Positions 1,475-53,721 of a stretch of 64,000 bases of DNA are shown one piece after another. The number at the start of each line of letters is the position of its first letter. Position 1 is the stretch's first letter. The stretch is from NCBI GenBank assembly GCA_017960855.1, contig JAGCYJ010000010.1:8098-72097 (forward strand), given 5' to 3'. This stretch comes from Alphaproteobacteria bacterium. Its GTDB lineage: Bacteria; Pseudomonadota; Alphaproteobacteria; Rs-D84. A program made the position numbers and the translations under genes. The notes below the pieces were generated by a model. That model was given only the letters and a program-made list of their open reading frames with translations. It was not told where the DNA came from and ran no database searches.

Positions 1475-4400
1475 TTACCCTGGTTGTGCCAATGATACCG
1501 GCGAATATGTGTGATTATCATATTTGATATGTAATCCAGGTGTATTCAAATTATCGTCCTGTTCCATATAGAGATAACAGACAACATCATTTTTCTTTAA
1601 TGCCAAAACCGGTGACGGAACCCCCGTCCGATCCGCCAACAAGTGGTATTGATAATTCCCAACATGCAATACCGACATTGCCGAACAATACGCATGGCAT
1701 TTATCGGCATATTCTGGCATACCCGCTTCGGCACAGGTTTGACACGAAACGCGTGTGCTGCCATCATTTGTGGGAACATTGCTATTACTGTATCCCCAAC
1801 TGGATTCAAAGCCGGTGATATATTGTGTCATTCCCGGGAAAGAATCACAACTGGTGGCAAGTTGGGTGCCGGAAAATGCGCTAGACCACATAGCAGAACC
1901 GGATGATGAACCGGGGTGTATTGTGTCTGGGAATGTTGTTGGCGGTATATAGCCGGTCAGGTTGCTGCAACTGTTAAATAAGTACATAAACATACCACTT
2001 GTATTTGTTGCATGCGATGTGTCAATCGTGCTGAACAAATCAGCCGGAATACTGGTAATGCCAGTATTACTAAATGTGCTACTAAACATATAACTTGTAT
2101 TTGTTGCGGACGATGTGTCAACACCGCTAAATAACCCAGCCGGAATACTGGTAATGCCGGTATTATTAAATGTGTTACTAAACATATAACGTGTATTAGT
2201 TGCGGACGATGTGTCAATATCGCTGAATAAATCCGCCGGAATACTGGTGATACCAGTACCTTGAAATGTGTAGTAAAACATAGAACTTGTATTTGTTGCG
2301 GATGATGTGTCAATATCGCTGAATAATCCCGCCGGTATGCTGGTAATGCCGGCATTGTTAAATGTCATATTAAACATACTACTTGTATCGGTTGCGGACG
2401 ATGTGTCAATACCCCTGAACAATTCCGCCGGAATACTGCTCAGGTTGCTGCAATTATAAAATGCATAATAAAACCGTGGTGTATTTCCATTTACGACCGG
2501 TAACATTGCACCCAATGAACCGGAAATTGACGCAACCTTAGCCTGCGTTCCACCGGATGATATATAAAACGATATTGCGGCCACGTTTCCATCAAGGTAT
2601 CCCGTGGCGGTGCCACCAAAGCGAACCGTGTGCGCCCCCGCCGAACCCCATGTACATGTATAGGTGGTGGTGTTCGTTCCGGTACGGGTGATGGTATTAC
2701 CGGAAATGGTGCTGCCCGTGGTGGTGCCACTTTGTGTCAATGTTCCACCATCACCACAATCGGCATAGAATTCACCAGTCGCTGTCATGGTCCAACTTAG
2801 CGTTGTTGCGTCGTTTGTTGTTGTCACAGAAAATTTTGCAGTTTCGCACGATGTGCCGGTGTTCAGATAACCCGAATCACATGTCCAATTACAGGTTCCC
2901 GCAACATACGATGCGTGTTCCGGTAATGTCCCCGCGCATGGCTCACATGAAACCTTGCCATCCCAATCGGATTCAAAGCCGGTGATATATTGTCCAGTTC
3001 CCACCGGGCATACCGTTAAAAGTTGCGTGTTATAAAATGTTCCGGACCACATACTTGTACTGGATGAAGAACCGGGTTGTATTGTGCTGGGGAATGTTGT
3101 TGGCGGTATATAGCCCCCCAGGTTGCTGCAACCGTAAAATGTATACCGAAACATATAAGTTGTATTTGTTGCGGACGATGTGTCAATCGTGCTGAATAAA
3201 TCCGCCGGAATACTGGTCAGACTGCTGCAACCGGTAAATGTTTCGTTAAACATACTAGTTGTATCGGTTGCGGACGATGTGTCAATGCCACTGAACAACC
3301 CAGCTGGGATACTGGTAATGCCGGTACGGGCAAATGTGCTACTAAACATACCACTTGTATTTGTTGCGGACGATGTGTCAATAGTGCTGAACAAATCAGC
3401 CGGGATACTGGTCAAACCGGTACACCCGTCAAATGTGCCCACAAATATATAACTTGTATTTGTTGCGGACGATGTGTCAATCGCGCTGAATAAATCCGCC
3501 GGGATACTGCCCAGGCTGGTGCAATTACGAAATGTATGCCGAAACATATAAGTTGTATTTGTTGCGGACGATATGTCAATCGTGCTGAATAAATCCGCCG
3601 GAATACTGGTCAGACTGCTGCAATTATAAAATGTGTTACTAAACATATCACTTGTATCTGTTGCGGACGATGTGTCAATCGTGCTGAATAAATCCGCCGG
3701 AATACTGGTGATACCAGTACCTTGAAATGTGCTACTAAATATAGAAGTTGTATTTGTTGCGGATGATGTGTCAATCGCGCTGAATAAACCCGCCGGAATA
3801 CTGGTCAGACTGCTGCAATTATAAAATGTGTCACTAAACATAGAACTTATATTTGTTGCGGACGATGTGTCAATCGTGCTGAATAAACCCGCCGGGATAC
3901 TGCCCAGGCTGGTGCAATTACGAAATGTGCCGTTAAACATAGAACTTATATTTGTTGCGGACGATGTGTCAATCGTGCTGAATAATCCCGCCGGGATACT
4001 GGTCAAACTGCTGCAATTATAAAATGTACCCACAAACATAGAACTTATATTTGTTGCGGACGATGTGTCAATCGCGCTGAATAAATCCGCCGGAATACTG
4101 GTCAAACTGCTGCAACCGTAAAATGTATACCGAAACATATAACTTGTATTGGATACGGACGATGTGTTAAGTCCGCTGAACAAATTCGCCGGAATACTGG
4201 TCAGATTGGTGCAATTGTAAAATGTTTGATAAAACCGTGGAATATTTCCATTTACGACCGGGAACATTGCACCCAATGAACCGGAAATTGACGCAACCTT
4301 GCTTTGTGTTCCACCGGATGATTTATAAAATGCTATGGCAGCGGCTGTTGTTGATGTACTGTATCCCGTGGCGGTGCCACCAAAGCGCACAGTATGCACC

Positions 4401-4798
4401 CCCGCCGACCCCCATGTACATGTATAGGTGGTGTTGGATGTCCCGGTGCGGGTGATGGTATTACCGGAAATGGTGCTGCCCGTGGTGGTTCCACTTTGTG
4501 TCAATGTTCCCCCATCGCCACAATCGGCATAAAACGGACCTTTTGCCGTCATGGTCCAACTTAGCGTTGTCGCATCGCTTGTCGTGGTCACACTGAATTT
4601 CGTGGTTTTGCACTGGGTTCCATCGCCCAGGGCGTCTATTTCGTTTGTTGCACATGCCGCCACCGCCGCGCCCGTCGCCCCAGCGACAAACGCGCATGTC
4701 ACAACAACCACACAAATTGCGTGCAAGAATTTTCCAAAAACACCGTTGACGTTCACAATTTGTTCCCCCCGTTTCCTTTTCAAAAAAGAAACCGTCAA
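1475..4798 (-). CDS. Giant secreted/surface repeat protein: 2 x (DCGDG beta-sandwich + DUF285/BspA-type LRR array) + Cys-rich linkers + terminal module
   Basis: Uninterrupted 1107-codon ORF. The ORF start at 4798 is TTG; a GTG at 4756 preceded by GGGGGGAA is an alternative start. Signal peptide ...FVAGATGAAVAA|C. 11 + 5 repeats of about 33 aa of the form IDTSSATN.S.MF..TF..C.SLTSIPA.LFS. Confidence 0.85.
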   Translation of the reverse strand: MTVSFLKRKRGEQIVNVNGVFGKFLHAICVVVVTCAFVAGATGAAVAACATNEIDALGDGTQCKTTKFSVTTTSDATTLSWTMTAKGPFYADCGDGGTLTQSGTTTGSTISGNTITRTGTSNTTYTCTWGSAGVHTVRFGGTATGYSTSTTAAAIAFYKSSGGTQSKVASISGSLGAMFPVVNGNIPRFYQTFYNCTNLTSIPANLFSGLNTSSVSNTSYMFRYTFYGCSSLTSIPADLFSAIDTSSATNISSMFVGTFYNCSSLTSIPAGLFSTIDTSSATNISSMFNGTFRNCTSLGSIPAGLFSTIDTSSATNISSMFSDTFYNCSSLTSIPAGLFSAIDTSSATNTTSIFSSTFQGTGITSIPADLFSTIDTSSATDTSDMFSNTFYNCSSLTSIPADLFSTIDISSATNTTYMFRHTFRNCTSLGSIPADLFSAIDTSSATNTSYIFVGTFDGCTGLTSIPADLFSTIDTSSATNTSGMFSSTFARTGITSIPAGLFSGIDTSSATDTTSMFNETFTGCSSLTSIPADLFSTIDTSSATNTTYMFRYTFYGCSNLGGYIPPTTFPSTIQPGSSSSTSMWSGTFYNTQLLTVCPVGTGQYITGFESDWDGKVSCEPCAGTLPEHASYVAGTCNWTCDSGYLNTGTSCETAKFSVTTTNDATTLSWTMTATGEFYADCGDGGTLTQSGTTTGSTISGNTITRTGTNTTTYTCTWGSAGAHTVRFGGTATGYLDGNVAAISFYISSGGTQAKVASISGSLGAMLPVVNGNTPRFYYAFYNCSNLSSIPAELFRGIDTSSATDTSSMFNMTFNNAGITSIPAGLFSDIDTSSATNTSSMFYYTFQGTGITSIPADLFSDIDTSSATNTRYMFSNTFNNTGITSIPAGLFSGVDTSSATNTSYMFSSTFSNTGITSIPADLFSTIDTSHATNTSGMFMYLFNSCSNLTGYIPPTTFPDTIHPGSSSGSAMWSSAFSGTQLATSCDSFPGMTQYITGFESSWGYSNSNVPTNDGSTRVSCQTCAEAGMPEYADKCHAYCSAMSVLHVGNYQYHLLADRTGVPSPVLALKKNDVVCYLYMEQDDNLNTPGLHIKYDNHTYSPVSLAQPG
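1950..2470 (-). repeat. Tandem 99-nt (33-aa) coding repeats, C-terminal LRR array (5 units)
   Basis: Recurring strings such as ttgttgcggacgatgtgtcaa...gctgaataa.cc.gccgg.atactggt at a 99-nt period. Confidence 0.85.
3100..4230 (-). repeat. Tandem 99-nt (33-aa) coding repeats, N-terminal LRR array (11 units)
   Basis: gatgtgtcaatcg.gctgaataaatccgccgg starts at 3471, 3570 and 3669 (exact 99-nt spacing). Many units are near-identical at the DNA level. Confidence 0.9.
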
Positions 4799-8068: not shown

Positions 8069-8103
8069 AAATCAGGCACCATCGGGTGCTTGATTTTTTT
8101 TGT
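8069..8103 (+). terminator. Intrinsic terminator
   Basis: aatcaggcacc-atcg-ggtgcttgatt hairpin followed by T8. Confidence 0.55.
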
Positions 8104-33341: not shown

Positions 33342-34451
33342 GTGACGCAAATATTGTCGGAAACCTACCTGGATTATTCGGATATTCTGATAAGACCTAA
33401 AATGGGAACCAATTTGAATTCTCGTAAAGAAGTCATTTTGGAACGCACTTTTAAATTCAAGCATGGTCAAATCAGAAATGGTTTGGGCGTTTTTAATGCC
33501 AATATGGCGACGGTTGGAAACTTCGTTATTGCCAAGAAATTGCTGGCACGCGGTATGTTTGCGACAATTCATAAACACTATACGATGGATGAAATAGGGC
33601 AGTTTATGCTGGATGCCCGCGGGGAAAATGTGCCACTGGATAATTTGTTCATTACAATCGGACTGAAAAACATAGATGATGAAATAAAAAAACTGAAAGA
33701 TTTGGAATCAAAATACCAATGGACATCGCCACGTAATATCTGCATAGATGCGCCGAATTTTTATATACCAAAGGCACTTGATATTTTGGCGCGTGTGCGG
33801 CATGAATTTCCCGATGCGGTAATTATGGCTGGAAATATCGCCAGTGGTGACGTGTGCCTTAAATTGCTGGATTACGCAGATATTATCAAGTGCGGTATCG
33901 GCAGTGGTTCCGCATGTTTAACACGCAAACAGACGGGGTGTGGAACACCAATGGTTTCACTGATTGTGGAATGTGCCGATATTGCACATTCGGTTGGTGG
34001 TCATATCTGTGCAGATGGCGGAATTGTTGATGTTGGCGATATATGCAAAGCACTGTGTTTGAATTCAGATATGGTTATGATTGGGGGAATGTTTGCTGGC
34101 ACCGATGAAGCCGCCGGTGAAGTGATAGAAAAGCATTACGAAACGAATGAAATTGTCGACGGCAAACATGTGATTCTGACAAAGTATTTCAAGCAATACT
34201 ATGGCATGTCGTCTGAATACGCGAACAATAAATTTGCGGGCGGTATGGGAAATTATAAAACGTCCGAAGGGCGCGAATTACTGATACCTTACACCGGTTC
34301 ACTGGACAAGATTTTGCAGGATATTTCCGGTGGAATCGCGTCTTGCTGCACATATATCGGTGCGACCACGATAAAGCATTTGTCCAAATGCGCGACGATT
34401 ATTCGTGTGAATAATCAACTGAATAAAGTGTTTGAAAAATATTCTGTATAA
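33342..34451 (+). CDS. guaC: GMP reductase (IMPDH/GMPR family)
   Basis: GTG start after AAGGAG. LDYSDILIRPK...S.R.EV.LER.F.FKH and the catalytic loop GIGSGSACLTR resemble GuaC. Confidence 0.8.
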   Translation: MTQILSETYLDYSDILIRPKMGTNLNSRKEVILERTFKFKHGQIRNGLGVFNANMATVGNFVIAKKLLARGMFATIHKHYTMDEIGQFMLDARGENVPLDNLFITIGLKNIDDEIKKLKDLESKYQWTSPRNICIDAPNFYIPKALDILARVRHEFPDAVIMAGNIASGDVCLKLLDYADIIKCGIGSGSACLTRKQTGCGTPMVSLIVECADIAHSVGGHICADGGIVDVGDICKALCLNSDMVMIGGMFAGTDEAAGEVIEKHYETNEIVDGKHVILTKYFKQYYGMSSEYANNKFAGGMGNYKTSEGRELLIPYTGSLDKILQDISGGIASCCTYIGATTIKHLSKCATIIRVNNQLNKVFEKYSV

Positions 34452-34614
34452 CAACACCTATTTGAGTGTTTTTTTATCCTTTTTTATCAAAAGGGCTTGT
34501 GTTGTTCCCCTGTTTTTTTGTATAATTATCATCATAACAAGGGAGGAAAATGCTAAAACGCACATCCGGTTTATATTATGGATGCGGCGGTTTTTGGCGT
34601 ATTACACGGAAATA

Positions 34615-36666
34615 ATGCGGCGATTTTTTAGTGCGATTTTAGTGCTGGTGTTAAGCGCGCGCTTTGGCGTGGCGTGGGCTGTTGACACTTGCACTGGCAC
34701 TGACTTTTATGATGATGAATTAGAGGCGTGTACCCCATGCCCAAATGGATATGATTATAATGATGATGATGGTAAAACCGATGTTTCCCAGTGCCAAATA
34801 CAATGTGCCGCCGGAACTTACATTCGCGATGCGGGGGTTTATGGATATATACGATTGGAATATTTGGAAAGCAATGGGGATGCATACATAAATACTGGAT
34901 TCAAACATAACCCCGCGGCTGGTACAATTCGTGGTGAAATTCGTGTCGGTGCGTCACATGATATGCCATCAAATAAAAATATAAATATTTTGGGGAACCA
35001 GACGGGCTCTGCCGGATATTCAGTTGGGTGGGCAGAAAACCAGTTTAAAGTATGGGTTGAAACAACTCATGCTCGTCTGCGGGGGCCTGATCACCCGCTT
35101 GTCCAAGATGGGGTATATGATATTTCATACGAATTTAAGAATGGTGAACAATATTTGACTGACGGAGAAGAAACAGTTCACATGCCGCATGGTGGGGGAC
35201 TCGCGCCAGACAAGCCAATATACTTGTTTGATAATGGTATTCAAGAAATGGATTATAATTTCGTTGGGCGTATATATTGGGTGCGAATATACGAAGATGA
35301 TGTGTTGGTAGCGAATTTCTTGCCGGTGCGTAAAATTGGTACTGATGATGTTGGAATATATGATACAGTGTCTGGAAAATTCTTTGTTGATAGTGGTAAT
35401 GGGAATGGTTTTATATCTGGTAATGATTTAAGTGCTGTTTGCGTTGATGTGGGGGCCGGTTACTATGTCGGCAGTTCGGTTACCAATTTCGGCAGTGAAG
35501 GCGAACGCGAAGCATGCGGCCCCGGAACATATTCTAACAATCCGCGCGCCACCAGTATCGCCACATGTCAACCATGCCCAGGGGCAACATACAACGATGT
35601 GGAAGGTGCGGCGGCGTGTACCCCATGTCCCGAAGGATATACACAGGATACAACAACGACTGGAAACACACAAAAAAGCGATTGCAAAACCGTTTGTCCG
35701 GCGGGAACTTACATGGCGGCCAATATGATTGATGGGCACACCAAATTGGAATATATTGAAACAACCGGAAAACAGTGGGTAAATACGGGGATTATAGCGG
35801 CAAATCTGGTGAATCCAATTATGGAATTTACGGTGCAATATACCAAGGTGGAAAATGGTAAGCAGACCGGTGCCAAGAAAAATAATCTGGATTTTAAGGT
35901 TGGTATTTCCAATGGTGGAATATTCTTGTGTCAGGCCGGTGGTGCCAACACAGAAACAAGATTTGGTACCGCTGATACCGCGAAACATACGTTTATACTG
36001 GATACAGTGGCGGGTACATGTTCCCTGGACGATGATACCAGAACATTGGCTGTTGGCGATTTAACGAATGGTCCTATTTCAATTGGAACGGTGAATAGTC
36101 AATCTGGTAATGCCGGAAAACAAAGAATATATTCTTATCGTTTGATTAGCAATGGGCAAACACTGTTGGACATGGTTCCCGTACGCAACAGCAGCAATGT
36201 CGCCGGTTTGTATGACAAGATCGGACACAGATTTTACCCCAGCAATGGCACAGAACCATTTGTTGAAGGTTCGCTGTTCACTAGTTCTTCTGGGTGTATA
36301 GATGTTGAACCTGGGTATTGGTCGCCCGAAACATATCTGGGGTATGGGCAAACAAATGAACGTAATCAGTGTCCGATTGGAACAACGACGGTTGGTTATG
36401 GTCATGGCGCAGACGAGGCCACCGATTGCGGACAAAAATTAAACATTGCCGGCACATACATATATTCTAAATCAAGTAAACCAACGACACCGTCACTTAA
36501 CATTATGATGGATAGTGGTACAACTTTCTATATCGGTGCCAGTTCTACAAATCATACATTGTCAAAATTGCATTTATCAGATGGTACAACACAATACACG
36601 GCTTATGACGATAGCTTGCTGTTCGGTGAACGCGATTTTACGACTGGCGCACGTATAACGCAGTAA
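34615..36666 (+). CDS. Secreted Cys-rich protein with two LamG/jelly-roll-like modules and the family terminal module
   Basis: Signal peptide MRRFFSAILVLVLSARFGVAWA begins at 34615; the ORF-track start 34432 adds 61 residues with no signal. Modules lie at about 34843-35421 and 35740-36270. The C-terminus ...TVGYGHGADEATDCG..LNI...LHLSDGTTQYTAYDD is shared with 36762..40814. Confidence 0.8.
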   Translation: MRRFFSAILVLVLSARFGVAWAVDTCTGTDFYDDELEACTPCPNGYDYNDDDGKTDVSQCQIQCAAGTYIRDAGVYGYIRLEYLESNGDAYINTGFKHNPAAGTIRGEIRVGASHDMPSNKNINILGNQTGSAGYSVGWAENQFKVWVETTHARLRGPDHPLVQDGVYDISYEFKNGEQYLTDGEETVHMPHGGGLAPDKPIYLFDNGIQEMDYNFVGRIYWVRIYEDDVLVANFLPVRKIGTDDVGIYDTVSGKFFVDSGNGNGFISGNDLSAVCVDVGAGYYVGSSVTNFGSEGEREACGPGTYSNNPRATSIATCQPCPGATYNDVEGAAACTPCPEGYTQDTTTTGNTQKSDCKTVCPAGTYMAANMIDGHTKLEYIETTGKQWVNTGIIAANLVNPIMEFTVQYTKVENGKQTGAKKNNLDFKVGISNGGIFLCQAGGANTETRFGTADTAKHTFILDTVAGTCSLDDDTRTLAVGDLTNGPISIGTVNSQSGNAGKQRIYSYRLISNGQTLLDMVPVRNSSNVAGLYDKIGHRFYPSNGTEPFVEGSLFTSSSGCIDVEPGYWSPETYLGYGQTNERNQCPIGTTTVGYGHGADEATDCGQKLNIAGTYIYSKSSKPTTPSLNIMMDSGTTFYIGASSTNHTLSKLHLSDGTTQYTAYDDSLLFGERDFTTGARITQ

Positions 36667-36761
36667 TTTTTTCATAATTTAAACAAAAATACCCTTGCAC
36701 GCACGCGCGTATTTTTAGTACGATTTTACTGAGAATATATGGAAAGGGGGTTGGTCCACAC

Positions 36762-39700
36762 TTGAAACGCACGTTTCTTGCGGTTTTTACGTGTTTGTTT
36801 TGCGCGCTTAATGCGGGCGTGTCTTTTGCGGCAAATAATTGTACGGGCGCAACGTATTATGATGCGGTGAATGATACCTGTATTAACTGTCCCACCGGAT
36901 ATACCGACAATCCAACCGCTGGCAAAACCAGCGCAAGCGAGTGTCAAAGAAGTTGTGCCGCTGGAACATTTATTGCGACCCCCGCATCCGTGGGTTCAAC
37001 CGCCTATACCCGATTAGAATACATTGAAAACCCAAACGGCAAGTATATCAACACCGGATTTTCGCATAGCAAAACCGCGACCACTATTCGTGGTGTATTA
37101 CGTGTCGGCGTATCAACTAATTTGTCAAACAGTTCAAATGTCAATTTCATCGGGAACCAGGCATCCAGTGGCGGTTATTCTGTTGGTTGGAATGCGTATT
37201 TCAAACTTTGGACCCAGTCATCAAACAGCCGACTAGAGGGGCCCGCATATCCAATGACGGCTGGAACTGTTCATGAAATCGAATACACACTGACAAACAC
37301 CACTCGTTCGTTAGTGTATGATGACGGGCGAAGCAAATCTGACACTTTTAGTGGCGGTAAGATCGTGGACCCCGCCACCACCATACACCTTTTTGATGCT
37401 GGTAATATTCAAGCTGCGCGTTCGTTCAAGGGGCGTATTTACGATTTAAAAGTGTATGAAGACGACGTGTTGGTCCATAATTTTGTCGCTGCGCGTCGCA
37501 ACAGCGATGGCAAAATCGGTATGTATGATACAGTAGCCGATGCGTTTTTGACTGGAAACGGCACATTTACCGCTGGACCCGATGCGGGCGCATGTTCGGA
37601 CGTGGGTATCGGGTACTATTCCAATGCGTCTATGACCGATTATGGTTCTACCAGTACCCGCATTATGTGTACAAATGGTCCGATACACACACACTATACC
37701 GCATCCGCCACATCTAATTCGTGTGCGTATGAGTGTGATGATAATTACGTTATGGAAAATGGTGTATGCGAATTTCAGGATAAATTTACCATAACCACAA
37801 CATCCAATGCGACGGAATTGCGGTTTGACATATCCGCGATTGGCACGTACTATGTTGATTGTGGCACCGATGGTGTGTTGACCCAGACCACGTATAGTGG
37901 TGACAATAACGCGGCCGGAACCGTCATCACCCGTACCAATACCACGAAACTGACCTATTCATGTGCTTGGCCGACTGCGGGTGTGCATACGGTAAAGTTT
38001 GCGGGGACAACAACATCGTATAATACAACCGCCACCATACCCGCGATAAGTTTTGCACCTACGGCCAATAAAATTGCGTCAATGACCGGTTCGTTGTCTG
38101 CGATTTTTCCGCAAAAGAGTGCATCAAACGGGCAATACCCGCGTTTTTATCAGACATTCAAGGGGGCAACCAACCTGACCAGTGTTCCGGCGGGATTGTT
38201 TACTGGAATAACCGGCAATGCAAACGCATCAAACATGTTTCGTGAAACATTTTATGGGTGTACCGCGCTTAATGCGATTCCGGCGGGATTGTTTGCCGGT
38301 GTAACAACGGGTGCGACGGATATGTTCCGATCAACATTTCAGGGTTGTACATCATTAACGTCTATTCCAGATGATTTATTCAGTGGCATGACCACCGCGG
38401 CATCGGGCCTGTTTCAGGCTACATTCAAGAATGCGACGCACTTGGCGGGGTATATACCGCCAACGACATTTGCGGGGCTTATTGCGAACACTTCGCCGAC
38501 AGACACTAATATGTGGACCGAAACGTTTAGTGGTACCGCTGTTGCCACAACCTGTCCGACGGGATTGGATGATTACCCGACCGGCTATGAATCCGAATGG
38601 GCGAATCATGTATCGTGTTATGTTGCATGTCCTGATACTCCACCCACGAACAGTGCTTGGCAAGTCATCAATAATACATGCGTATGGTTGTGCAACGCGG
38701 GGTATTACAGCGCGGACAACACATCGTGCACCGCGGTCGACACCGGTTATTATTCTGGTGACGGCGACAACACGCAAACGGCATGTACCAACAAACCGGC
38801 GAACAGCCATTATACCGGTTCGGCGATAACCGACAATTGTCCGTGGCAATGTGACACGGGCTATGGCAGCGATGCCGGCACCTGTCGCGCGTGTACGGCG
38901 AGTGAATTTTTGACCAACGGTGGTATTTGTGTGAACACAAAGTTTACCGTCACAACCACAAATAGTACAAGCGAATTTAAGTTCTTTATGTGGGAACCAA
39001 CTGGAACATTCTATGTCGATTGGGGCGACGGCAACGTTGATACAATTACGCGTACCAATTCGACCGGAAACACATATTCCCATGACTATGCCGCGACCGG
39101 TTCATATACAATTCGATTTGGTGGTGTTGCGACGGGGTATGATGGAAACTCGGCACATACCGCAATAAGTTTTTATGGGCAAACCGGCGGAACCCAGGAT
39201 AAAATCGCATCCGTTACGGGATCGCTGGCTGCGTTGTTTCCAACCCCCAATGATAGTGCGTTGCCGTTTTTCCGTGAAACATTCCGGGGGGCAACAAACC
39301 TGACATCGGTTCCCAATACACTGTTCGATGGCATAACCCAGACCCATGGTCACATGTTTTATCATACATTCGATGGCGCGGGCTTGACCGCGATTCCATC
39401 TGATTTATTCAGTGATGTCCACTCGTTGGGGGTTGGTATGTTTGAATATACATTTGCTAACTGCGCTTCGTTGACCGCGATTCCAAGTGGATTATTTGAT
39501 GATATGACCGCCAGTGGTGCGGTGGACAATATGTTTGAGGGAACATTTACGGGATGTACATCATTGACCACGATACCAGCCGGTTTGTTTGATGATGTTA
39601 TTGCCAGTTCGTCAAATTGGACACGGCTTTCCAGTACCAGTACCGGCGGTGTATTCCGTGATACGTTTAGTGGCTGCACATCATTAACCTCTGTTCCGGC

Positions 39701-40814
39701 GGAACTGTTTAGCGGAATGACAATCAATGGAATACCATATATGTTCGCCAACACATTTAAAAATTGTTCATCATTGGCGACGATACCGACCGGATTATTT
39801 GATGATATTACGACATCAGGGACGGCGTTCAATATGTTTGAATACACATTTGAGGGTTGTACATCATTGAACGCGATACCGTCGGACTTGTTTGATGATG
39901 TTATTAGTGGTGCAGCCAGCGGAACTGACAAAACCGGCTGGTTCAAGGATACATTTAATGGCTGTACGGGATTGACCGCGATACCGGCCGAATTGTTTAG
40001 TGGTATGACCACCGCTGCAGAGAATTTGTTCTATGGCACATTTAATGGTTGCACGAATTTGGCGGGATATATTCCACCAACCACATTTGCGGGGTTAATT
40101 ACGAATGACAGCACGAAAAACACAAATATGTGGGGTAATGCGTTCGTTGGAACAAATTTGGTGACGGTGTGTCCAGCGGGAACGACACAGTATATCACGG
40201 GCTATGAAGGTTCAACAAACGGAACGACCTGGAATGGCAAGGTTTCATGTGAACCATGTGCCGCCGGAACATATAAAGCAACAGCAGGCAACGGTGCGTG
40301 TACCGCGTGCGAAATTGGAACCTATGCCGCTGCTGGTGCGGTGTCTTGTACGGCATGCACAAATACCAAACCTGCAAACAGTTCGTATAGTTCTAACGCT
40401 ACGACAAATGCGTGTTTGTGGTTATGTGATGGGGGGTATTACAGCACGGATAGCGCGTCCTGTACAGAGGTTGGTGCGGGTTGGTATTCCGCTGATGGCG
40501 ACAATACGCGCAGTGCTTGTGCCGCTGGACTTACCACTGTGGGTTATGGGCATGGTGCGGATGAAGTGGCCGATTGTGGTCATGAATTACACCTTGGAGA
40601 TTTTGTCTTTTATACTAAACAAACAAAATCAACAACACCGGCATTGAACATTACTGATGGCACATCTGTTTCATACCTAGGGGCCAGTACAACCAACCAG
40701 AGTTTATCGAAATTGCATATTTCAGATGGAACAACACAATATACTGCGTATGATGACGGATTATTGTATGGGGAACGGAATGCAACAACGGGGCAACGTA
40801 TTACGCAACAATAA
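36762..40814 (+). CDS. Giant secreted mosaic protein (1350 aa): LamG-like module + 2 x (beta-sandwich + DUF285/BspA-type LRRs) + Cys-rich repeats + terminal module
   Basis: TTG start after GGAAAGGGGG. Signal peptide MKRTFLAVFTCLFCALNAGVSFA. KFTITTT..YYVDCGTDG and KFTVTTT..FYVDWGDGN units. CEPCAAGTYKATAGNGACTACEIGTY. Confidence 0.88.
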   Translation: MKRTFLAVFTCLFCALNAGVSFAANNCTGATYYDAVNDTCINCPTGYTDNPTAGKTSASECQRSCAAGTFIATPASVGSTAYTRLEYIENPNGKYINTGFSHSKTATTIRGVLRVGVSTNLSNSSNVNFIGNQASSGGYSVGWNAYFKLWTQSSNSRLEGPAYPMTAGTVHEIEYTLTNTTRSLVYDDGRSKSDTFSGGKIVDPATTIHLFDAGNIQAARSFKGRIYDLKVYEDDVLVHNFVAARRNSDGKIGMYDTVADAFLTGNGTFTAGPDAGACSDVGIGYYSNASMTDYGSTSTRIMCTNGPIHTHYTASATSNSCAYECDDNYVMENGVCEFQDKFTITTTSNATELRFDISAIGTYYVDCGTDGVLTQTTYSGDNNAAGTVITRTNTTKLTYSCAWPTAGVHTVKFAGTTTSYNTTATIPAISFAPTANKIASMTGSLSAIFPQKSASNGQYPRFYQTFKGATNLTSVPAGLFTGITGNANASNMFRETFYGCTALNAIPAGLFAGVTTGATDMFRSTFQGCTSLTSIPDDLFSGMTTAASGLFQATFKNATHLAGYIPPTTFAGLIANTSPTDTNMWTETFSGTAVATTCPTGLDDYPTGYESEWANHVSCYVACPDTPPTNSAWQVINNTCVWLCNAGYYSADNTSCTAVDTGYYSGDGDNTQTACTNKPANSHYTGSAITDNCPWQCDTGYGSDAGTCRACTASEFLTNGGICVNTKFTVTTTNSTSEFKFFMWEPTGTFYVDWGDGNVDTITRTNSTGNTYSHDYAATGSYTIRFGGVATGYDGNSAHTAISFYGQTGGTQDKIASVTGSLAALFPTPNDSALPFFRETFRGATNLTSVPNTLFDGITQTHGHMFYHTFDGAGLTAIPSDLFSDVHSLGVGMFEYTFANCASLTAIPSGLFDDMTASGAVDNMFEGTFTGCTSLTTIPAGLFDDVIASSSNWTRLSSTSTGGVFRDTFSGCTSLTSVPAELFSGMTINGIPYMFANTFKNCSSLATIPTGLFDDITTSGTAFNMFEYTFEGCTSLNAIPSDLFDDVISGAASGTDKTGWFKDTFNGCTGLTAIPAELFSGMTTAAENLFYGTFNGCTNLAGYIPPTTFAGLITNDSTKNTNMWGNAFVGTNLVTVCPAGTTQYITGYEGSTNGTTWNGKVSCEPCAAGTYKATAGNGACTACEIGTYAAAGAVSCTACTNTKPANSSYSSNATTNACLWLCDGGYYSTDSASCTEVGAGWYSADGDNTRSACAAGLTTVGYGHGADEVADCGHELHLGDFVFYTKQTKSTTPALNITDGTSVSYLGASTTNQSLSKLHISDGTTQYTAYDDGLLYGERNATTGQRITQQ

Positions 40815-49000: not shown

Positions 49001-52000
49001 CATCCGGCGGATCACAAGATAAAATCGCGTCTGTTTCTGGTAATTTGGCGACAATATTCCCATATTTGGGTTCGGACGCTAGCCAGAGACCAAAGTTTTA
49101 CCAAACATTTCGTGGGGCAACGAATTTAACGTCTATCTCGGCGGGATTGTTCAGCGGTTTTACCATCGGGGGCGGTCAGATGTTCCATGAAACATTTTAT
49201 GGATGTACTGGTCTGACCAGTATTCCGGCGGGATTATTCAGTTCTATTACCACCGCAGCGGGCACTTCGCAGATGTTTTCAAGTACATTTTACGGATGTA
49301 CGGGTTTGACCACTGTTCCGGCGGATTTGTTCGGTGGCATTACAACCGGTGCGGATCATTTGTTTTATGAAACATTCAGGGGATGTACTGGACTGACCAG
49401 CATACCGGCGGGGTTATTCAATAAAGTAACTTCCTCGGCAGATGCAACTTATATGTTTTATAACACATTTTATGGTTGCACGGGTCTGACCAGTTTGCCG
49501 ACGGGATTATTCAACAGTGTTACCACTGGGGCAGAATATTTGTTCCATGGAACATTTAGGGGGTGCACCGGATTGACCAGTATACCGGCGGGGCTATTCA
49601 GCAGTGTTACGACCGGTGCAAATTATATGTTTATGAACACATTTTATGGATGTACAGGCCTGACCAGTTTTCCTGCGGGCTTGTTCAGCGGACTTACCAC
49701 TGCGGGAAATTATATGTTTGCCTACGTATTTCAAGGTTGCACTAATTTGGCGGGCTTTATACCACCAGATGCTTTTGCGGGGCTGATTGCGAATAATTCG
49801 CCAAACACAACCTATATGTGGAGGGACGCGTTTTACAACACTCAATTGCTGACACAATGTCCAGTTGGTTATACGCAGTATATCACTGGGTACGAAGGAT
49901 CTAGTTATACATCCGCTTGGTACAACAGGGTTTCATGTCAACCATGTCCCGCTGGAACGTATAAGGATGTCGCGGGTAACGAAGCGTGCTCGGCATGTGG
50001 TGTTGGAACATATATGTCGGGTACGGGGGCAACGGAATGCGATGCGTGTACCAATGGACCGGCAAACAGCACTTATACCAGTGGTGGTGGATCAACAAAC
50101 ACTTGCGAATGGTCGTGCGATTCTGGAACGATTCCAACGGGTACATCTTGTGATATACCAAAGTTTGAAGTGACAACGACTGAACTGGATGCGGGTACGA
50201 CATTTACATTTACTTTGTCGGCACAAGGGACATTCTATGTTGACTGGGGCGACGGCAGTGCAGTTCAGACAATCACACGTTCCGATACAACCGCCACCGA
50301 TTACAGTCACACATACGAAACAGCTGGTTCATACACGATAAAGTTTAGCAGCAGTGGCATTACGGCTTATAACGAAGATACGACAACCGCAGCAATCAGT
50401 TTTTATAAATCATCTGGTGGATCACAGGGTAAAATAGCATCTCTTTCTGGCTCGTTGGGGGCGTTGTTCCCAACATTGGCAAGCAGCAGTGGTGGCAGAT
50501 ATGCGCGGTTTATCAATACATTCAGGGGTGCCACCAATCTTACTTCATTGCCGTCAACTTTGTTCAGTGGTGTTGCATCCTCAGGAACATATTTATTTTA
50601 TGGAACATTTTATGGTTGTACGGGACTGACCAGTAATGGAATACCGTCAACGCTGTTCAGCAGTGTCACCACTGGTGGTACCAGAACATTTTATGAGACA
50701 TTCCGTGGTTGTACGGGATTGACAACAATACCGTCGGGATTGTTTAGTACCGTCACAACAAATTCTAATTCTTCCTATTTGTATGTTGGAACATTCCGCG
50801 GTTGTACAGGGTTGACGGAAATACCGTCGGGGCTGTTTAGTCGTGTTACCACAACTTCTACTTATATGTTTCAGAATACATTCTATGGTTGTACGGGGTT
50901 GACCACAATACCATCGGGATTGTTTAGCAACATTAATGCTGGTGGGGCGACTTATCTGTTTAACGGAACATTCTATGGTTGTACGGGTCTAACCAGTATT
51001 CCAGAGGGGTTATTCAGCAGAATTACGGCTGGTAAAGATTACATGTTTTCTGAAACATTTCGTGGGTGTACCAATTTGACGGCATTGCCCAGTGGTTTGT
51101 TCAGTAACATTACGACGACCACCAGTGCTCAGTATTTATTCGATAACACGTTTTTGGGGTGCAGTAAATTGGCCACTGTTCCGGCGAATACATTTAGTGG
51201 AATTACATCAGCTTCTGCAGAAGGTGTCTTTCGTGGCACATTCCAAAGTTGTACCAGTTTGACTAGCATAGATGCTGGATTGTTCAGCGGTATTACCAGT
51301 GCGGTACTTAGGACGTTCAATGCTACTTTCCAAGGGGCTGGTCTGACCAGCATACCAGATGGATTATTCAGTGGTATTACTGCGGGGGCGCATAGTATGT
51401 TTTATTCTACATTCCAAGAATGCACATCGTTGACCGCATTGCCACCAAACTTGTTCGCGAATATTACCAGTGGTGTCGGAAATAGTACATTCCGAAGCAC
51501 GTTTTATGGTTGTTCAAATTTGCGCGGATATGTCCCCCCAACGTTCTTTGCGGGGCTTATTGCGAATAATTCGCCGTACACGGGACCAAATGGCATGGCT
51601 ACTTTGTTCCAGGGTACTAGTTTGGCAACATCCTGTCCGGCGGGCACAACACAATATATTACCGGGTACGAAAGTTATTGGACTTCCAAGGTTTCATGTC
51701 AACCATGTCCCGCGGGAACTTATAAGTCGGGTTCAGGCAATGGTGCGTGCTCGGCATGTGGTGTTGGAACATATATGGCGGACACTGGTGCGACCGCATG
51801 TACCGCGTGTACCAACACAATACCAGAAAATGCGGTCTATTCAACCAATGGTGGTGACGGCGGAACAACCAACACATGCGAATGGTCGTGCGATTCGGGA
51901 ACAATTCCCACCGGCACATCGTGTGAAATGCCAAAGTTCAGTGTCACGACAACGTCAATGGCGGCAAATACGGCGTTTTCGTTTAGTTTGTCGGCAACTG

Positions 52001-53721
52001 GAACATTTTATATTGATTGCGGTGATGGTGGAACGTTAAGACAATTTTCCCCATCCAGCACGATTTCCAACAAGACGATAACCCGTGATAGCGCTTTACC
52101 GTCCAAGTATTCATGTACATGGTCATCGGCGGGTGTACATACGGTTCGTTTCGGTGGTGTGGCAACGGGATACGCTGGTGGGGCCACCAGCAACCCCTAT
52201 GCTCCAATATCGTTTTTTTATGATTCATCAACCGGGCGGAATTTTATTGTATCAGTTGACGGTTCGTTGGGTGCGTTATTTCCACAGTTGGGAACAGAAG
52301 ATGGAAAGTACCCAAAGTTTAATGGTACGTTCCAGAGTGCACCAAATTTAACAACAATTCCAGGTACATTGTTCAGTGGTTTAACCGGTGGCGATTATAT
52401 GTTTAGTCACATGTTTAGTGGTTGTTCATCATTGACCACAATTCCAGATAATCTGTTTAGTGGAATTACGACCAGTGGTAAATCTATGTTTAACGGCACG
52501 TTTTCCCACACTGGTATTACCAGTATCCCATCTGGATTATTTGATGGCGATGACCTTACCACCGGGGCATATGGTATGTTTTGGAGTGTGTTTAGTGGTT
52601 GCTCGTCATTGACTACAATACTGGCGGGGTTGTTTAGCAATTTTACCACCGGTGGATATGGTATGTTTCAAGGAGCGTTTTCTGATTGTACGTCGTTAAC
52701 AACAATTCCAGGGGACTTGTTCAGTGGTATTACCACTGGGGAACCCGCTATGTTTTATGTTACATTTAGTGGTTGTACTGGATTAACGGAAATTCCAGAA
52801 AACTTATTTGCCAATATTACCACAATTTCTGCGATAAATGCGCCTGTGTTTTGGGAAACATTTAGCGATTGTACCAATTTGACTGGTTTTATTCCGCCGA
52901 CTTTGTTCGCGGGATTGATTGCCAATGGTTCGCCGAATCCGTATCCGGGTACTATGCGTGATCCATTTTTTAACACAGGGACGTTAACCGAATGTCCGGC
53001 GGGGTATACGCAGTATATAACTGGTTATGAAGATGATTGGGGTGGCAAGGTTTCGTGCGAACTGTGTCCGGCGGGAACATATAAGGATACCGTGGGAAAT
53101 CAGGCATGTTCAGCGTGCCCAGCTGGGACCTATATTGGAACCACGGGGGCGACCGCGTGTACGGCATGTCCTGCGCTGGATACCGGATATGCTTATGCAG
53201 ATGGAACGGGTTGGACCGGGTGGAATCAGTGTTCGGAACAGATGCGCCCAACAAACTGTTACAGCGGATATTTAACCAAAACCGCAAGCAGCGCATCTGC
53301 ATGGGGAACCGCGGTATCTACGCTCTCTGCCGAGCCGGGATACGAAGTGACAGGCAGTGGCGATAATACGGTATGTTCGGAATGTGGTGTTGGTCGCTAT
53401 GGACCGGGTGGAACAACAGCATGTTCATCCTGCCCAACTGGTTTAACCACGGTTGGATATGGTTCGGGCGCGGACGAAGCGGGCGATTGTGGGCGTATAT
53501 TACATGTGAGTAATGGTGTTCTGTACCTGCGTAGTGTAAAAAAGACAACGCCTTCACTGAATGTCAGAATAGGTAATGATGTTTTCTATGGTAATATGAG
53601 TACAGAACAGATGAATATGAGTGGTAGTTGTGAAGATAACCCCGAACTGAAAGTCAATAATGGAGGAACAATATATTGGATACATGACGACAGCAGTCAT
53701 TTTTGTGGGGTGCCGATGTAG
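46024..53721 (+). CDS. Giant secreted/surface mosaic protein (about 2565 aa): 5 x (beta-sandwich + DUF285/BspA-type LRR array + IPPxTFAGL cap) separated by Cys-rich repeats, plus terminal module
   Basis: 7.7-kb uninterrupted ORF (ATG 46024, with TTG at 46021). Signal peptide MKRILSILFMCLFVVLSPTRASA. Mature N-terminus ACTSSQIDVLGDGTQCETSKF parallels the 1475..4798 protein. Confidence 0.9.
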   Translation: MKRILSILFMCLFVVLSPTRASAACTSSQIDVLGDGTQCETSKFELTTTSLAANTTFTFTLGASGTFYVDWGDGGAVETIARDSVTATDYTHTYTTAGVYTIRFSGLATEYDVSSNGSTTISFYKASGGSQGKIASISGNLASIFPYLGSENNQAPRFYGTFRGATNLTSIPATLFSGITTGEGGMYMFGMTFYGCTGLTSIPATLFSGITTGANSMFSNTFSGCTGLTSLPEGLFSSITTGGYQMFSSTFSGCTGLTRIPARLFSGLTTVGGYMFQFLFNGCKNLAGVIPPDTFAGLTANGAPTNTYIWTSAFTNTKLATSCPAGTHQHYTGYESKSTGLFEDRVSCACDDGTWGDGNTCTACANTHPAHSSYYGLATTATCPWACDAGYYWDGTACSVCSNSAPANSTFTPGSTTATCPWTCNAGYITNGNSCDAPAFSVTTTSLPFGDKFTFSLSAVGTFYVNWGDGTEETIVRDNTTSTWYTHTYTTPGVHTINFGGTATAYNTSTSVATILFYKSSDGSQKKIASISGNLATIFPSYGTDSGQSPRFNRTFREATNLTSVPATLFSGFTQGTNYMFSETFYGCTGLTSLPAGLFSSFTTGATYMFSGTFYGCKGLTSLPTGLFGNITTTTGATYMFNNTFYGCTGLTSLPTGLFSGMTSGTGYMFYNTFKGCTGLTSLPAGLFSSFTTGANYMFSSTFEGCTGLTSLPADLFSGMTTGAQSLFSSTFKGCTGLTSLPDGLFSSITTGAQYMFLSTFNGCTGLTKLPSRLFSGLTTTGSYMFSNTFNGCTNLGGYIPPDTFAGLIENGSPSASMWNSTFTNTQLLTECPTGTEQYITRYEGSTDGTTWNGKVSCGCEAGYWVDGATCTACSNTIPAHSSYTTGATNATCPWVCDSDYVSNGTSCVAPAFSVTTTSLNANDTFTFSLTAVGTFYVNWGDGTQQTIVRTDTTSTWYTHTYSSAGTYTINFGGIATSYYHAGYQAAISFYKSSGGSQDKIASVSGNLATIFPYLGSDASQRPKFYQTFRGATNLTSISAGLFSGFTIGGGQMFHETFYGCTGLTSIPAGLFSSITTAAGTSQMFSSTFYGCTGLTTVPADLFGGITTGADHLFYETFRGCTGLTSIPAGLFNKVTSSADATYMFYNTFYGCTGLTSLPTGLFNSVTTGAEYLFHGTFRGCTGLTSIPAGLFSSVTTGANYMFMNTFYGCTGLTSFPAGLFSGLTTAGNYMFAYVFQGCTNLAGFIPPDAFAGLIANNSPNTTYMWRDAFYNTQLLTQCPVGYTQYITGYEGSSYTSAWYNRVSCQPCPAGTYKDVAGNEACSACGVGTYMSGTGATECDACTNGPANSTYTSGGGSTNTCEWSCDSGTIPTGTSCDIPKFEVTTTELDAGTTFTFTLSAQGTFYVDWGDGSAVQTITRSDTTATDYSHTYETAGSYTIKFSSSGITAYNEDTTTAAISFYKSSGGSQGKIASLSGSLGALFPTLASSSGGRYARFINTFRGATNLTSLPSTLFSGVASSGTYLFYGTFYGCTGLTSNGIPSTLFSSVTTGGTRTFYETFRGCTGLTTIPSGLFSTVTTNSNSSYLYVGTFRGCTGLTEIPSGLFSRVTTTSTYMFQNTFYGCTGLTTIPSGLFSNINAGGATYLFNGTFYGCTGLTSIPEGLFSRITAGKDYMFSETFRGCTNLTALPSGLFSNITTTTSAQYLFDNTFLGCSKLATVPANTFSGITSASAEGVFRGTFQSCTSLTSIDAGLFSGITSAVLRTFNATFQGAGLTSIPDGLFSGITAGAHSMFYSTFQECTSLTALPPNLFANITSGVGNSTFRSTFYGCSNLRGYVPPTFFAGLIANNSPYTGPNGMATLFQGTSLATSCPAGTTQYITGYESYWTSKVSCQPCPAGTYKSGSGNGACSACGVGTYMADTGATACTACTNTIPENAVYSTNGGDGGTTNTCEWSCDSGTIPTGTSCEMPKFSVTTTSMAANTAFSFSLSATGTFYIDCGDGGTLRQFSPSSTISNKTITRDSALPSKYSCTWSSAGVHTVRFGGVATGYAGGATSNPYAPISFFYDSSTGRNFIVSVDGSLGALFPQLGTEDGKYPKFNGTFQSAPNLTTIPGTLFSGLTGGDYMFSHMFSGCSSLTTIPDNLFSGITTSGKSMFNGTFSHTGITSIPSGLFDGDDLTTGAYGMFWSVFSGCSSLTTILAGLFSNFTTGGYGMFQGAFSDCTSLTTIPGDLFSGITTGEPAMFYVTFSGCTGLTEIPENLFANITTISAINAPVFWETFSDCTNLTGFIPPTLFAGLIANGSPNPYPGTMRDPFFNTGTLTECPAGYTQYITGYEDDWGGKVSCELCPAGTYKDTVGNQACSACPAGTYIGTTGATACTACPALDTGYAYADGTGWTGWNQCSEQMRPTNCYSGYLTKTASSASAWGTAVSTLSAEPGYEVTGSGDNTVCSECGVGRYGPGGTTACSSCPTGLTTVGYGSGADEAGDCGRILHVSNGVLYLRSVKKTTPSLNVRIGNDVFYGNMSTEQMNMSGSCEDNPELKVNNGGTIYWIHDDSSHFCGVPM
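46150..53054 (+). repeat. Five coding super-repeats (units start at about 46150, 47338, 48757, 50161 and 51934), each containing 4-11 LRRs of about 28-31 aa
   Basis: Each unit opens with (K/A)F(E/S)(L/V)TTT...GTFY(V/I)(D/N)(W/C)GDG. DNA-level near-identity also occurs inside arrays, e.g. about 80 nt at 47782 versus 48049. Confidence 0.9.

Follow-up and report, generated by a model that had tools for sequence, protein, structure and literature searches.

Ephrin-receptor-like cysteine units as optional parts of the linkers between the modules of giant leucine-rich-repeat surface proteins in a reduced-genome alphaproteobacterium

The Ephrin_rec_like domain (PF07699, formerly GCC2_GCC3) is described as a cysteine-rich repeat that emerged in early eukaryotes, and the single actinobacterial case has been reported as a probable horizontal gene transfer (PMC6993872). 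What such units can build is illustrated by Mst1, in which a 678-residue domain composed of them forms a 26-nm rod containing 26 disulfides (PMC11015965). The analysis presented here concerns a stretch of 64,000 nucleotides, referred to as the window (positions 8,098 to 72,097 of contig JAGCYJ010000010.1, assembly GCA_017960855.1), from an alphaproteobacterium of the order Rs-D84. The members of this order are described as reduced-genome gut bacteria, non-respiring and probably partner-dependent (PMC12306168), and the sizes of the sampled genomes of the own genus and order, all between 0.5 and 1.1 Mb, agree with that description. The assembly itself comprises 14 contigs that total 646 kb, at a completeness of 60%. 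Within the window, the gene P0002 encodes a giant protein with cysteine-rich stretches, one of which (49936-50052) was flagged in the original prediction as ephrin-receptor-like, together with four further copies in P0002 and its neighbours P0003 and P0004. The flagged stretches are genuine members of the PF07699 / TNFR-like cysteine-rich module. The domain itself is already known, and precomputed Pfam annotation lists PF07699 on P0002. What is new is its systematic use as a linker between the modules of BspA/PARCEL-type adhesins, together with its lineage-wide enrichment in a reduced-genome order of the gut and rumen.

The translation of the flagged stretch is exactly as claimed, and the four other copies are all real, although two of the starts first given for them, 51696 and 53055, lie one nucleotide out of frame (Table 1 lists the true positions). 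The cysteines of a unit are spaced as C-x2-C-x13-14-C-x2-C, with G-[TS]-[YF] after the second cysteine, as read from the translations, and in the unit alignment the columns C, G, T, Y and C are invariant. P0002 contains the strict motif C..C..G[TYSA][YFW] six times, compared with an average of 0.02 and a maximum of 2 over 2000 residue shuffles. One linker of 101 residues contains it twice, compared with an average of 0.006 over 5000 shuffles in which its cysteine-rich composition was preserved. Chance and low complexity are ruled out by these shuffles and by the E-values of the hidden Markov model (HMM) searches. The nucleotide identity among the copies is only 62–79%, which rules out a recent duplication or an assembly artefact and describes the copies as old duplicates held by selection.

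The assignment to the family is carried by the sequence evidence. The Pfam gathering cut-off of PF07699 is 23.1 bits; as whole proteins, P0002 reaches 59 bits over four stretches and P0004 reaches 30.1 bits (model positions 1-48), and P0003 stays just below the cut-off with 21.5 bits but scores 29.5 in the genome scan. The scan of the whole genome gave 13 matches with a best E of 8.5e-11. Nine of these are above the cut-off, one of the nine only together with its neighbours in its frame. The highest single-place scores are 41.5, 36.9, 36.2, 29.5 and 28.5 bits, among which the flagged pair accounts for 36.9 bits (E 2.5e-9), and the 75-residue linker of unit 3 scores 43.8 bits when taken alone. 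No purely bacterial family of cysteine repeats matched better, with the Myxococcus-type DUF4215 reaching E = 6.4. The TNFR model TNFR_c6 (PF00020) stayed below its cut-off of 29.4, with 15.4 bits and E 0.026. TNFR_ELAPOR1_6th and NCD3G are also below their cut-offs on the linkers, and the relation to TNFR is visible at the clan or fold level only.

Comparison with solved structures leads to the same group of proteins. By sequence, a single linker finds Chlamydomonas Mst1 (8tx1, E 3.5e-7) and EphB2 (7s7k, E 1e-3) in the PDB. A profile of seven linker sequences finds them with E 1.2e-14 and E 8.2e-5, respectively, followed by DR6, EphB6 and 4-1BB at E 4e-3 to 9e-3, and the alignments to 4-1BB and DR6 span approximately the whole linker (77 residues). 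The AlphaFold2 model of P0002 residues 1200-1395, built from a nine-sequence alignment, has a mean pLDDT (predicted local distance difference test) of 86 and about 90 across the linker. Its best PDB matches in Foldseek are all eukaryotic cysteine ladders: EphB2 (2.8 Å over 64 columns, 30% identity), EphB6 (2.1 Å over 68 columns), the cysteine-rich domain of the calcium-sensing receptor (CaSR; 2.4 Å over 64 columns), and further OX40, DR6, TNFR1, HVEM, 4-1BB and Mst1. Such fold evidence is supportive. The spacing and residues of the ephrin-receptor-like / GCC2-GCC3 repeat, as originally proposed, are thus recovered by the HMM above its cut-off and by the PDB profile search, and the fold search agrees weakly.

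The proteins which carry these units are classified by profile cut-offs as BspA-type leucine-rich-repeat (LRR) / PARCEL-repeat surface proteins. The PARCEL repeat model TIGR02167 (cut-off 30) gives 179 bits for P0002 and 57 bits for P0003, and P0002 additionally matches LRR_5 (PF13306) with 68.4 bits (cut-off 27.7) and PKD with 34 bits. Sec-type signal peptides are recognized by sequence inspection at the N-termini of P0002, P0003, P0004 and a fourth, minus-strand paralog, that of P0002 being MKRILSILFMCLFVVLSPTRASA (read by eye), and all carriers are accordingly predicted to be extracellular, either secreted or surface-bound. P0002 is composed of five super-repeats followed by a C-terminal end domain. 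Each super-repeat proceeds from a PKD-like beta-sandwich through BspA/PARCEL-type LRRs to an LRR C-terminal cap, ending in '...C-P-x-G-x-x-Q-Y-I-T-G-Y-E...KVSC', and then to a cysteine linker. P0003 begins with an N-terminal cysteine module and a jelly-roll-like domain, followed by two PKD-LRR units with cysteine linkers.

In the LRR carriers P0002 and P0003, the Ephrin-like units invariably come after the LRR cap and before the following domain, which bears out the placement between LRR blocks described at first. Their modularity is visible in an alignment of nine cap-plus-linker segments from the window and from orthologous loci in rumen metagenome-assembled genomes (MAGs). There, two Ephrin-like units are gained or lost as one block in linkers that are otherwise alignable. 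P0002 has the two-unit block in its units 3, 4 and 5, and P0003 has it in its last linker. The block is missing from the minus-strand paralog, whose linkers contain six cysteines each and no full Ephrin-like pair, which indicates that the units are optional inserts. The linker of unit 2 has one short-loop unit at the place where the block would be. The linker of unit 3 contains two Ephrin-like units, a long hairpin and a C.W.C..G end hairpin, and the region after unit 5 contains an Ephrin-like pair, a 'C.SGYL.K.ASS..AWG' module and one more Ephrin-like unit (41.5 and 21.5 bits with PF07699 in the genome scan; the last unit scores 19.8 bits separately). Every linker closes with the module 'P-x-[NH]-[SA]-x-Y ... 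C-x-W-x-C-x2-G-[YT]-x4-8-C'.

Because the units lie between modules, vary as whole blocks and have a precedent in Mst1, they are probably rigid, copy-number-variable disulfide spacers within modular LRR adhesins, the adhesin role being one that we infer for giant secreted proteins of this type. The linker would begin with a disulfide from the cysteine of the LRR C-terminal cap, continue with zero, one or two units, and then pass through the C.W.C..G[YT]...C hairpin, the end of which would lead to the next PKD-like domain or to the C-terminal end domain. Such a linker would form a thin, stiff and protease-resistant rod of approximately 3 nm for 75 residues, as scaled from Mst1, and the rod would space and orient the successive PKD-like beta-sandwich and LRR binding modules. 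The spacing would be set by the number of units, with the length changing by whole hairpins, in predicted steps of about 0.5-0.6 nm each.

The precedent of Mst1 also points in another direction. Exactly this domain mediates the polymerization of Mst1, as an antiparallel homodimer with an interface of 7,400 Å2 (PMC11015965), and the genes of several paralogs that share these linkers lie together. The rods could therefore pair with their neighbours, side by side or antiparallel, and build fibrils or a surface lattice in the manner of Mst1 or of Eph clusters. Such self-association seems rather improbable, as the linkers have zero to two units and about 75 residues compared with the 678 residues of Mst1, and their loop residues vary between units and between paralogs.

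The linkers of units 1 and 2 represent a second type, which was previously likened to the surface antigens of protists (CACDDGTW and C.W.C..GY linkers). The strings 'CACDDGTWGDGNTCTAC...TCPWACDAGYY' are indeed present at P0002 residues 349-436, but the likeness to protists was not upheld by profiles: a Pfam search up to E 10 gave no match to the Giardia-type variant-specific surface proteins (VSP, PF03302) or to other protist antigens. The best Pfam scores are sub-threshold and belong to EGF_3 (20.8 bits, cut-off 28.5) and cEGF (14.5 bits, cut-off 26.6). The short-loop hairpins, CDDGTWGDGNTCTAC and similar, obey C-x2-G-[TY]-[YW]-x5-12-C-x2-C as the Ephrin-like units do, fill the same alignment columns, and have loops of five residues in place of eight or nine. 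This linker type is therefore read as a set of short-loop variants of the same ladder with an EGF-like terminal hairpin, and not as a separate protist-like family.

The interpretation of the linkers as disulfide spacers has several points weighing against it. First, the Foldseek probabilities are 0.9-1.0 (1.0 for EphB2 and EphB6) with weak E-values of 8e-3 to 8e-2, the TM-scores (template modelling) are low because the query also held LRRs, and an AlphaFold model of the linker only (7 sequences) has a pLDDT of 45 and was not used for the fold search. Second, the linkers are 73–92% identical between orthologs, about as conserved as the LRR and PKD parts, and ortholog conservation thus fails to mark them as pure scaffold. 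Third, both the disulfide pairing and the rigidity are what we infer by analogy with the A1 module of TNFR and with Mst1. Fourth, DsbB and VKOR were found in none of 21 genomes of the order, while the same searches were positive in 6 and 3 control genomes, respectively. The lineage is anaerobic and reportedly without respiratory chains (PMC12306168).

The disulfides themselves are plausible, with indirect support from the cysteine numbers and from the retention of the DsbA-like protein described below. Counted with the cap cysteine, the nine linkers between an LRR block and the next domain contain 6, 6, 8, 10, 10, 12, 12, 12 and 14 cysteines, an even number in nine of nine cases, for which the chance is about 0.002 if parity were random. 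In the TNFR A1 module, which is the model for the pairing proposed here, a hairpin is closed by a disulfide. By this model each unit, C-x2-3-G-T-Y-x8-9-C followed by x2-C, would be one beta-hairpin closed by one disulfide, and the CxxC would be the joint between successive hairpins. The pairing would be consecutive: the cap cysteine with the first cysteine of the first CxxC, and thereafter the second cysteine of each CxxC with the first of the next. For the linker of unit 3 this predicts the pairs 1280-1306, 1309-1323, 1326-1340, 1343-1362 and 1366-1377.

Alternatively, the CxxC...CxxC pairs could hold Zn2+, in the style of the DnaJ-type CxxCxGxG or of zinc ribbons, and form no disulfides in a reducing anaerobic habitat. 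The CxxC pairs, 13-14 residues apart, are superficially like zinc knuckles. The lack of DsbB and VKOR among the 21 genomes and the anaerobic habitat (PMC12306168) also speak for metal. This alternative is nevertheless very unlikely. The significant profile matches point to an extracellular family with disulfides, zinc-finger families all stay below their cut-offs, the structures on which the model superposes are disulfide ladders, and five of the nine cysteine counts (6, 6, 10, 10 and 14) are not multiples of four. Moreover, 20 of the 21 order genomes, which are of about 0.9 Mb, retain a membrane-anchored Thioredoxin_4/DsbA-like protein that has a CPYC motif and two membrane segments at its N-terminus. 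DsbA working without DsbB is known from Staphylococcus aureus.

PF07699 is present in 49 of 61 genomes of the own genus and order, in 7 of 12 genera (E threshold 1e-3), with 46 genomes above Pfam's own cut-off. In an even sample of the class outside the genus it is found in 5 of ~298 genomes, and in an even sample of the phylum in none of 399 (both at 1e-5), a contrast somewhat overstated by the looser threshold of the order survey; the 14 control genomes have none at the thresholds of each search. Exact matches to the S12 proteins of the five carriers in the class are labelled 'Alphaproteobacteria bacterium' or belong to one cluster that includes 'Acetobacter sp. CAG:977'. Within the order, the genomes of a sister family contain as many as 28 matches, a number reached in a genome of about 0.8 Mb, and many of these matches are in small secreted proteins. 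Two genomes of this sister family (G060 and G043; L001 1300-1992 and L002 1294-1890, the latter on the minus strand) encode such proteins of about 200-230 residues, built from a signal peptide, three or four units close to the consensus (up to 52 bits) and a short unique tail. A tblastn search with the linker gave no match among 50,697 records of phages and 72,556 of plasmids.

A further possibility is ligand binding or host mimicry, in which the units would copy a TNFR- or Eph-like surface and bind, or act as a decoy for, a ligand of the host or of a gut protist. Eukaryotic cysteine-rich domains of the TNFR type do bind ligands. The mainly eukaryotic nature of the family (PMC6993872) and its strong enrichment in an order presumed to need partner cells (PMC12306168) fit this possibility. 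It is judged unlikely for several reasons, and the mimicry suggested at first has no positive support. The likeness is to the family consensus and to no one host protein (identity to EphB2 and to 4-1BB is about 30%, over 41-77 residues), and the best solved relative is an algal structural filament protein, not one of a ruminant. In Eph receptors, ephrin is bound by a domain other than the cysteine-rich region. Binding would more obviously fall to the neighbouring LRR and PKD-like domains, and some linkers do without the units. Ankyrin repeats, a frequent mark of effectors directed at eukaryotes, are uninformative in this respect: 11 of 21 relatives and 5 of 14 controls have them, and none was detected in this genome.

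The claim that the repeat is mainly eukaryotic is in line with its published emergence in early eukaryotes (PMC6993872) and with a profile built on ten units, taken from the genome and from its orthologs, which matched 18,338 representative proteins among 1.84 billion. The named best hits that were looked up are metazoan, namely PCSK5-like and SCUBE-like proteins of Mya arenaria and an 'ephrin type A/B receptor-like domain-containing protein' of Macrostomum; the remaining ones looked up are metagenomic giants. Homolog searches restricted to the linker returned few proteins, mostly close relatives or, again, metagenomic giants. The units found elsewhere in metagenomes lie in intronless open reading frames of 3,800-4,400 residues, of which one is on a clearly bacterial contig and two, of at least 4,000 aa, are on gene-dense contigs. 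A unit-bearing giant on a plainly bacterial contig means that the module is not confined to eukaryotes and this order.

In a tree of 173 units over 39 columns, the linker units of the LRR adhesins form one tight group. The other units of the genome and its relatives scatter among unrelated metagenomic giants, and 155 of the 173 leaves fall under the last common ancestor of the units that belong to the genome itself. As a result of the 39 columns and the scattered units, the tree gives nothing reliable on the direction of transfer to or from eukaryotes. The GC (guanine-cytosine) content across the carrier genes is unremarkable, and together with the age of the copies this indicates that any transfer was not recent. 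It is a quite improbable scenario that an ancestor of the order acquired the module from a eukaryotic source (a protist of the gut or rumen, or the animal host) and expanded it for attachment to eukaryotic cell surfaces. If true, these partner-dependent gut bacteria would have a eukaryotic partner, and the adhesins would represent the lineage-wide domestication of a eukaryotic extracellular module in bacteria.

A contig scan with degenerate patterns reached only close relatives in rumen MAGs (RUG14636, RUG12956, RGIG8177 and RGIG8116), plus one odd contig, L011 (1-6183, RFOM01000090.1, 'Proteobacteria bacterium WB4_1_1462'). The latter is an open frame of more than 2061 residues in a 6.2-kb stretch of a 12-kb contig, with domains that look CUB-type by eye, along with dozens of 'C-x2-C-x-AGKYS' units. 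It could represent a mis-binned contig of eukaryotic or viral origin, or a further bacterial giant.

The features described here are collected in Table 1.

Table 1. Carrier genes, cysteine linkers, Ephrin-like pairs and related features (positions in the window unless stated otherwise)
Feature	Position	Strand	Details
P0002 gene	46024-53721	+	2565 aa from ATG 46024; in-frame TTG 46021 (2566-aa frame)
Unit 1 linker, P0002	46990-47328	+	Cys324-Cys436, 12 cysteines; short-loop type CACDDGTWGDGNTCTAC, two C.W.C..GY end hairpins
Unit 2 linker, P0002	48517-48747	+	Cys833-Cys909, 8 cysteines; short-loop type
Unit 3 linker, P0002	49858-50151	+	cap Cys1280 to Cys1377, 10 cysteines
Flagged pair of Ephrin_rec_like hairpin units	49936-50052	+	unit 3 linker, P0002 residues 1306-1344; CQPCPAGTYKDVAGNEACSACGVGTYMSGTGATECDACT
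Unit 4 linker, P0002	51634-51924	+	Cys1872-Cys1968, 10 cysteines; PF07699 36.2 bits
Ephrin-like pair	51697-51813	+	unit 4 linker, P0002; CQPCPAGTYKSGSGNGACSACGVGTYMADTGATACTACT
Cysteine region after unit 5, P0002	52993-53490	+	Cys2325-Cys2490, 14 cysteines; leads into C-terminal end domain
Ephrin-like pair	53056-53172	+	after unit 5, P0002; first given as 53055-53173; CELCPAGTYKDTVGNQACSACPAGTYIGTTGATACTACP
P0003 gene	36762-40814	+	1350-aa paralog; linkers 38553-38930, 40170-40577
Jelly-roll-like domain	36957-37592	+	P0003 residues 66-277
Ephrin-like pair	40248-40361	+	last linker of P0003; CEPCAAGTYKATAGNGACTACEIGTYAAAGAVSCTACT
P0004 gene	34432-36666	+	744-aa open frame; likely start Met62, ~34615; without LRRs; cysteine modules 34690-34806, 35440-35697
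Jelly-roll-like domains	34807-35439, 35698-36295	+	P0004 residues 126-336, 423-621
Looser Ephrin-like copy	35515-35640	+	P0004; CGPGTYSNNPRATSIATCQPCPGATYNDVEGAAACTPCPEGY
Fourth paralog gene	1475-4798	-	1107 aa; two PKD-LRR units; linkers 2846-3010, 1577-1849
DsbA-like CPYC protein	contig C13 of this genome (G000), 1867-2691, outside the window		two N-terminal membrane segments

The carrier genes are surrounded by groEL, a GMP-reductase/IMPDH-family gene, lysS, a LemA-family gene, rpsD, smpB, tatD, a DNA polymerase III delta'-like (holB-like) gene and three tRNAs. Their position among bacterial housekeeping and tRNA genes on one contig rules out a eukaryotic contaminant. Orthologs of P0003 are present in the rumen MAGs (loci L007-L010). 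In L007 and L010 the ortholog is followed directly by the GMP-reductase/IMPDH-family gene, which in the window (33342-40814) lies upstream, before P0004, and this differing position implies that the locus was rearranged around the adhesin genes. In L008 and L010, the second unit of the P0003 ortholog has about 100 fewer LRR residues. The PKD-like heads of P0002 (46150-46800 and the other unit heads) match NCBIfam NF058578 (CPR pilus RbmA-like PamR) with 69 bits in four stretches. This is far below the cut-off of 300 bits and thus denotes a shared beta-sandwich motif only.

Other modules accompany the units in the related giants. The jelly-roll-like domain of about 200 residues (LEYIE..G.YI.TG ... 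GRIYD.KVYEDDVLVHNFV) has no Pfam match and sits between two cysteines which elsewhere close a 'C-AAGT[FY]...C' hairpin. Cysteine bookkeeping, the only basis here, suggests that it may be nested in the loop of a ladder hairpin. A module of about 45 residues, 'C-x-SG-x-L-x-K-x-A-S-S-A-x-A-W-G-T...G-Y-x-V-x-G-S-G...C-x2-C', matches no family. It occurs once in P0002 (53260-53400, residues ~2413-2455) and at least four times in a 1473-aa frame upstream of the window, which runs off the contig start (G000:C8:2-4420). Outside the window, a 3206-aa open frame on the minus strand (G000:C6:100542-110159) contains 221 cysteines, with many types of cysteine modules mixed with 'YNLNGG...GYTFDGW'-type repeats. 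Together with the paralogs in the window, these two frames amount to ~31 kb, roughly 5% of the 646-kb assembly. Antisense open frames of up to 1704 aa lie opposite such Thr/Ser/Gly/Cys-rich genes (G000:C8:2-5113 and window 38376-39083 and 39362-40012, all minus). They are probably a by-product of codon composition and recall the 'palindromic' property behind the PARCEL name.

The significance of these observations lies in the regular use of the domain. In contrast to the stray bacterial cases of the literature (PMC6993872), Ephrin_rec_like recurs as a routine component in about 80% of the surveyed genomes of one reduced-genome order of gut and rumen Alphaproteobacteria. A life at the expense of partner cells is assumed for these bacteria, and no attachment or uptake machinery is known from them (PMC12306168), which makes the giant LRR proteins prime candidates for a contact apparatus. 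The putative rods are short, optional and variable in copy number, and would offer a simple handle on how reach and spacing affect binding. They also raise the biochemical question of how proteins with more than 90 cysteines are oxidized in an anaerobe that has a DsbA-like protein and neither a recognisable DsbB or VKOR nor a respiratory chain.

Among the known systems, the eukaryotic PF07699 proteins (Eph receptors, SCUBE, ELAPOR and PCSK5-like proteins) share the unit itself, C-x2-C-P-x-G-T-[YF]-x5-9-G-x3-C-x2-C. They differ in that the carrier here is a bacterium with only one or two optional units per linker, and an architecture with units between BspA/PARCEL-type LRR solenoids and PKD-like domains is, to our knowledge, not described for this family. 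The BspA/TpLRR/PARCEL proteins of gut and oral bacteria, mycoplasmas and Trichomonas resemble the carriers, being secreted and giant and having a variable number of repeats. Among the described BspA-type proteins, Ephrin_rec_like ladders are not known as inter-module linkers, within a search that was not exhaustive. The VSP and high-cysteine membrane proteins of Giardia and the immobilisation antigens of ciliates are similarly extracellular and CxxC-rich, and some of these Giardia VSP-type and ciliate surface proteins carry GCC2_GCC3 units. They are described as disulfide-dependent coats, a dense cysteine layer as opposed to the modular LRR adhesins considered here.

The cysteine-rich domains of TNFR proteins (4-1BB/TNFRSF9, DR6, OX40 and TNFR1) dominate the fold search, and the bacterial unit fits the start of the TNFR pattern of PROSITE PS00652, C-x4-6-[FYH]-x5-10-C-x0-2-C. 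They differ from the linkers in their ligand-binding role, which is not indicated here. Mst1 (8tx1, 8wa2) shares with the linkers an extracellular, disulfide-stapled rod of the same hairpin units, combined with Ig-like domains (PMC11015965). It is one long polymerizing rod of 678 residues with a glycosylated polyproline helix, whereas the bacterial proteins, which have no such helix, would place short rods between their LRR modules.

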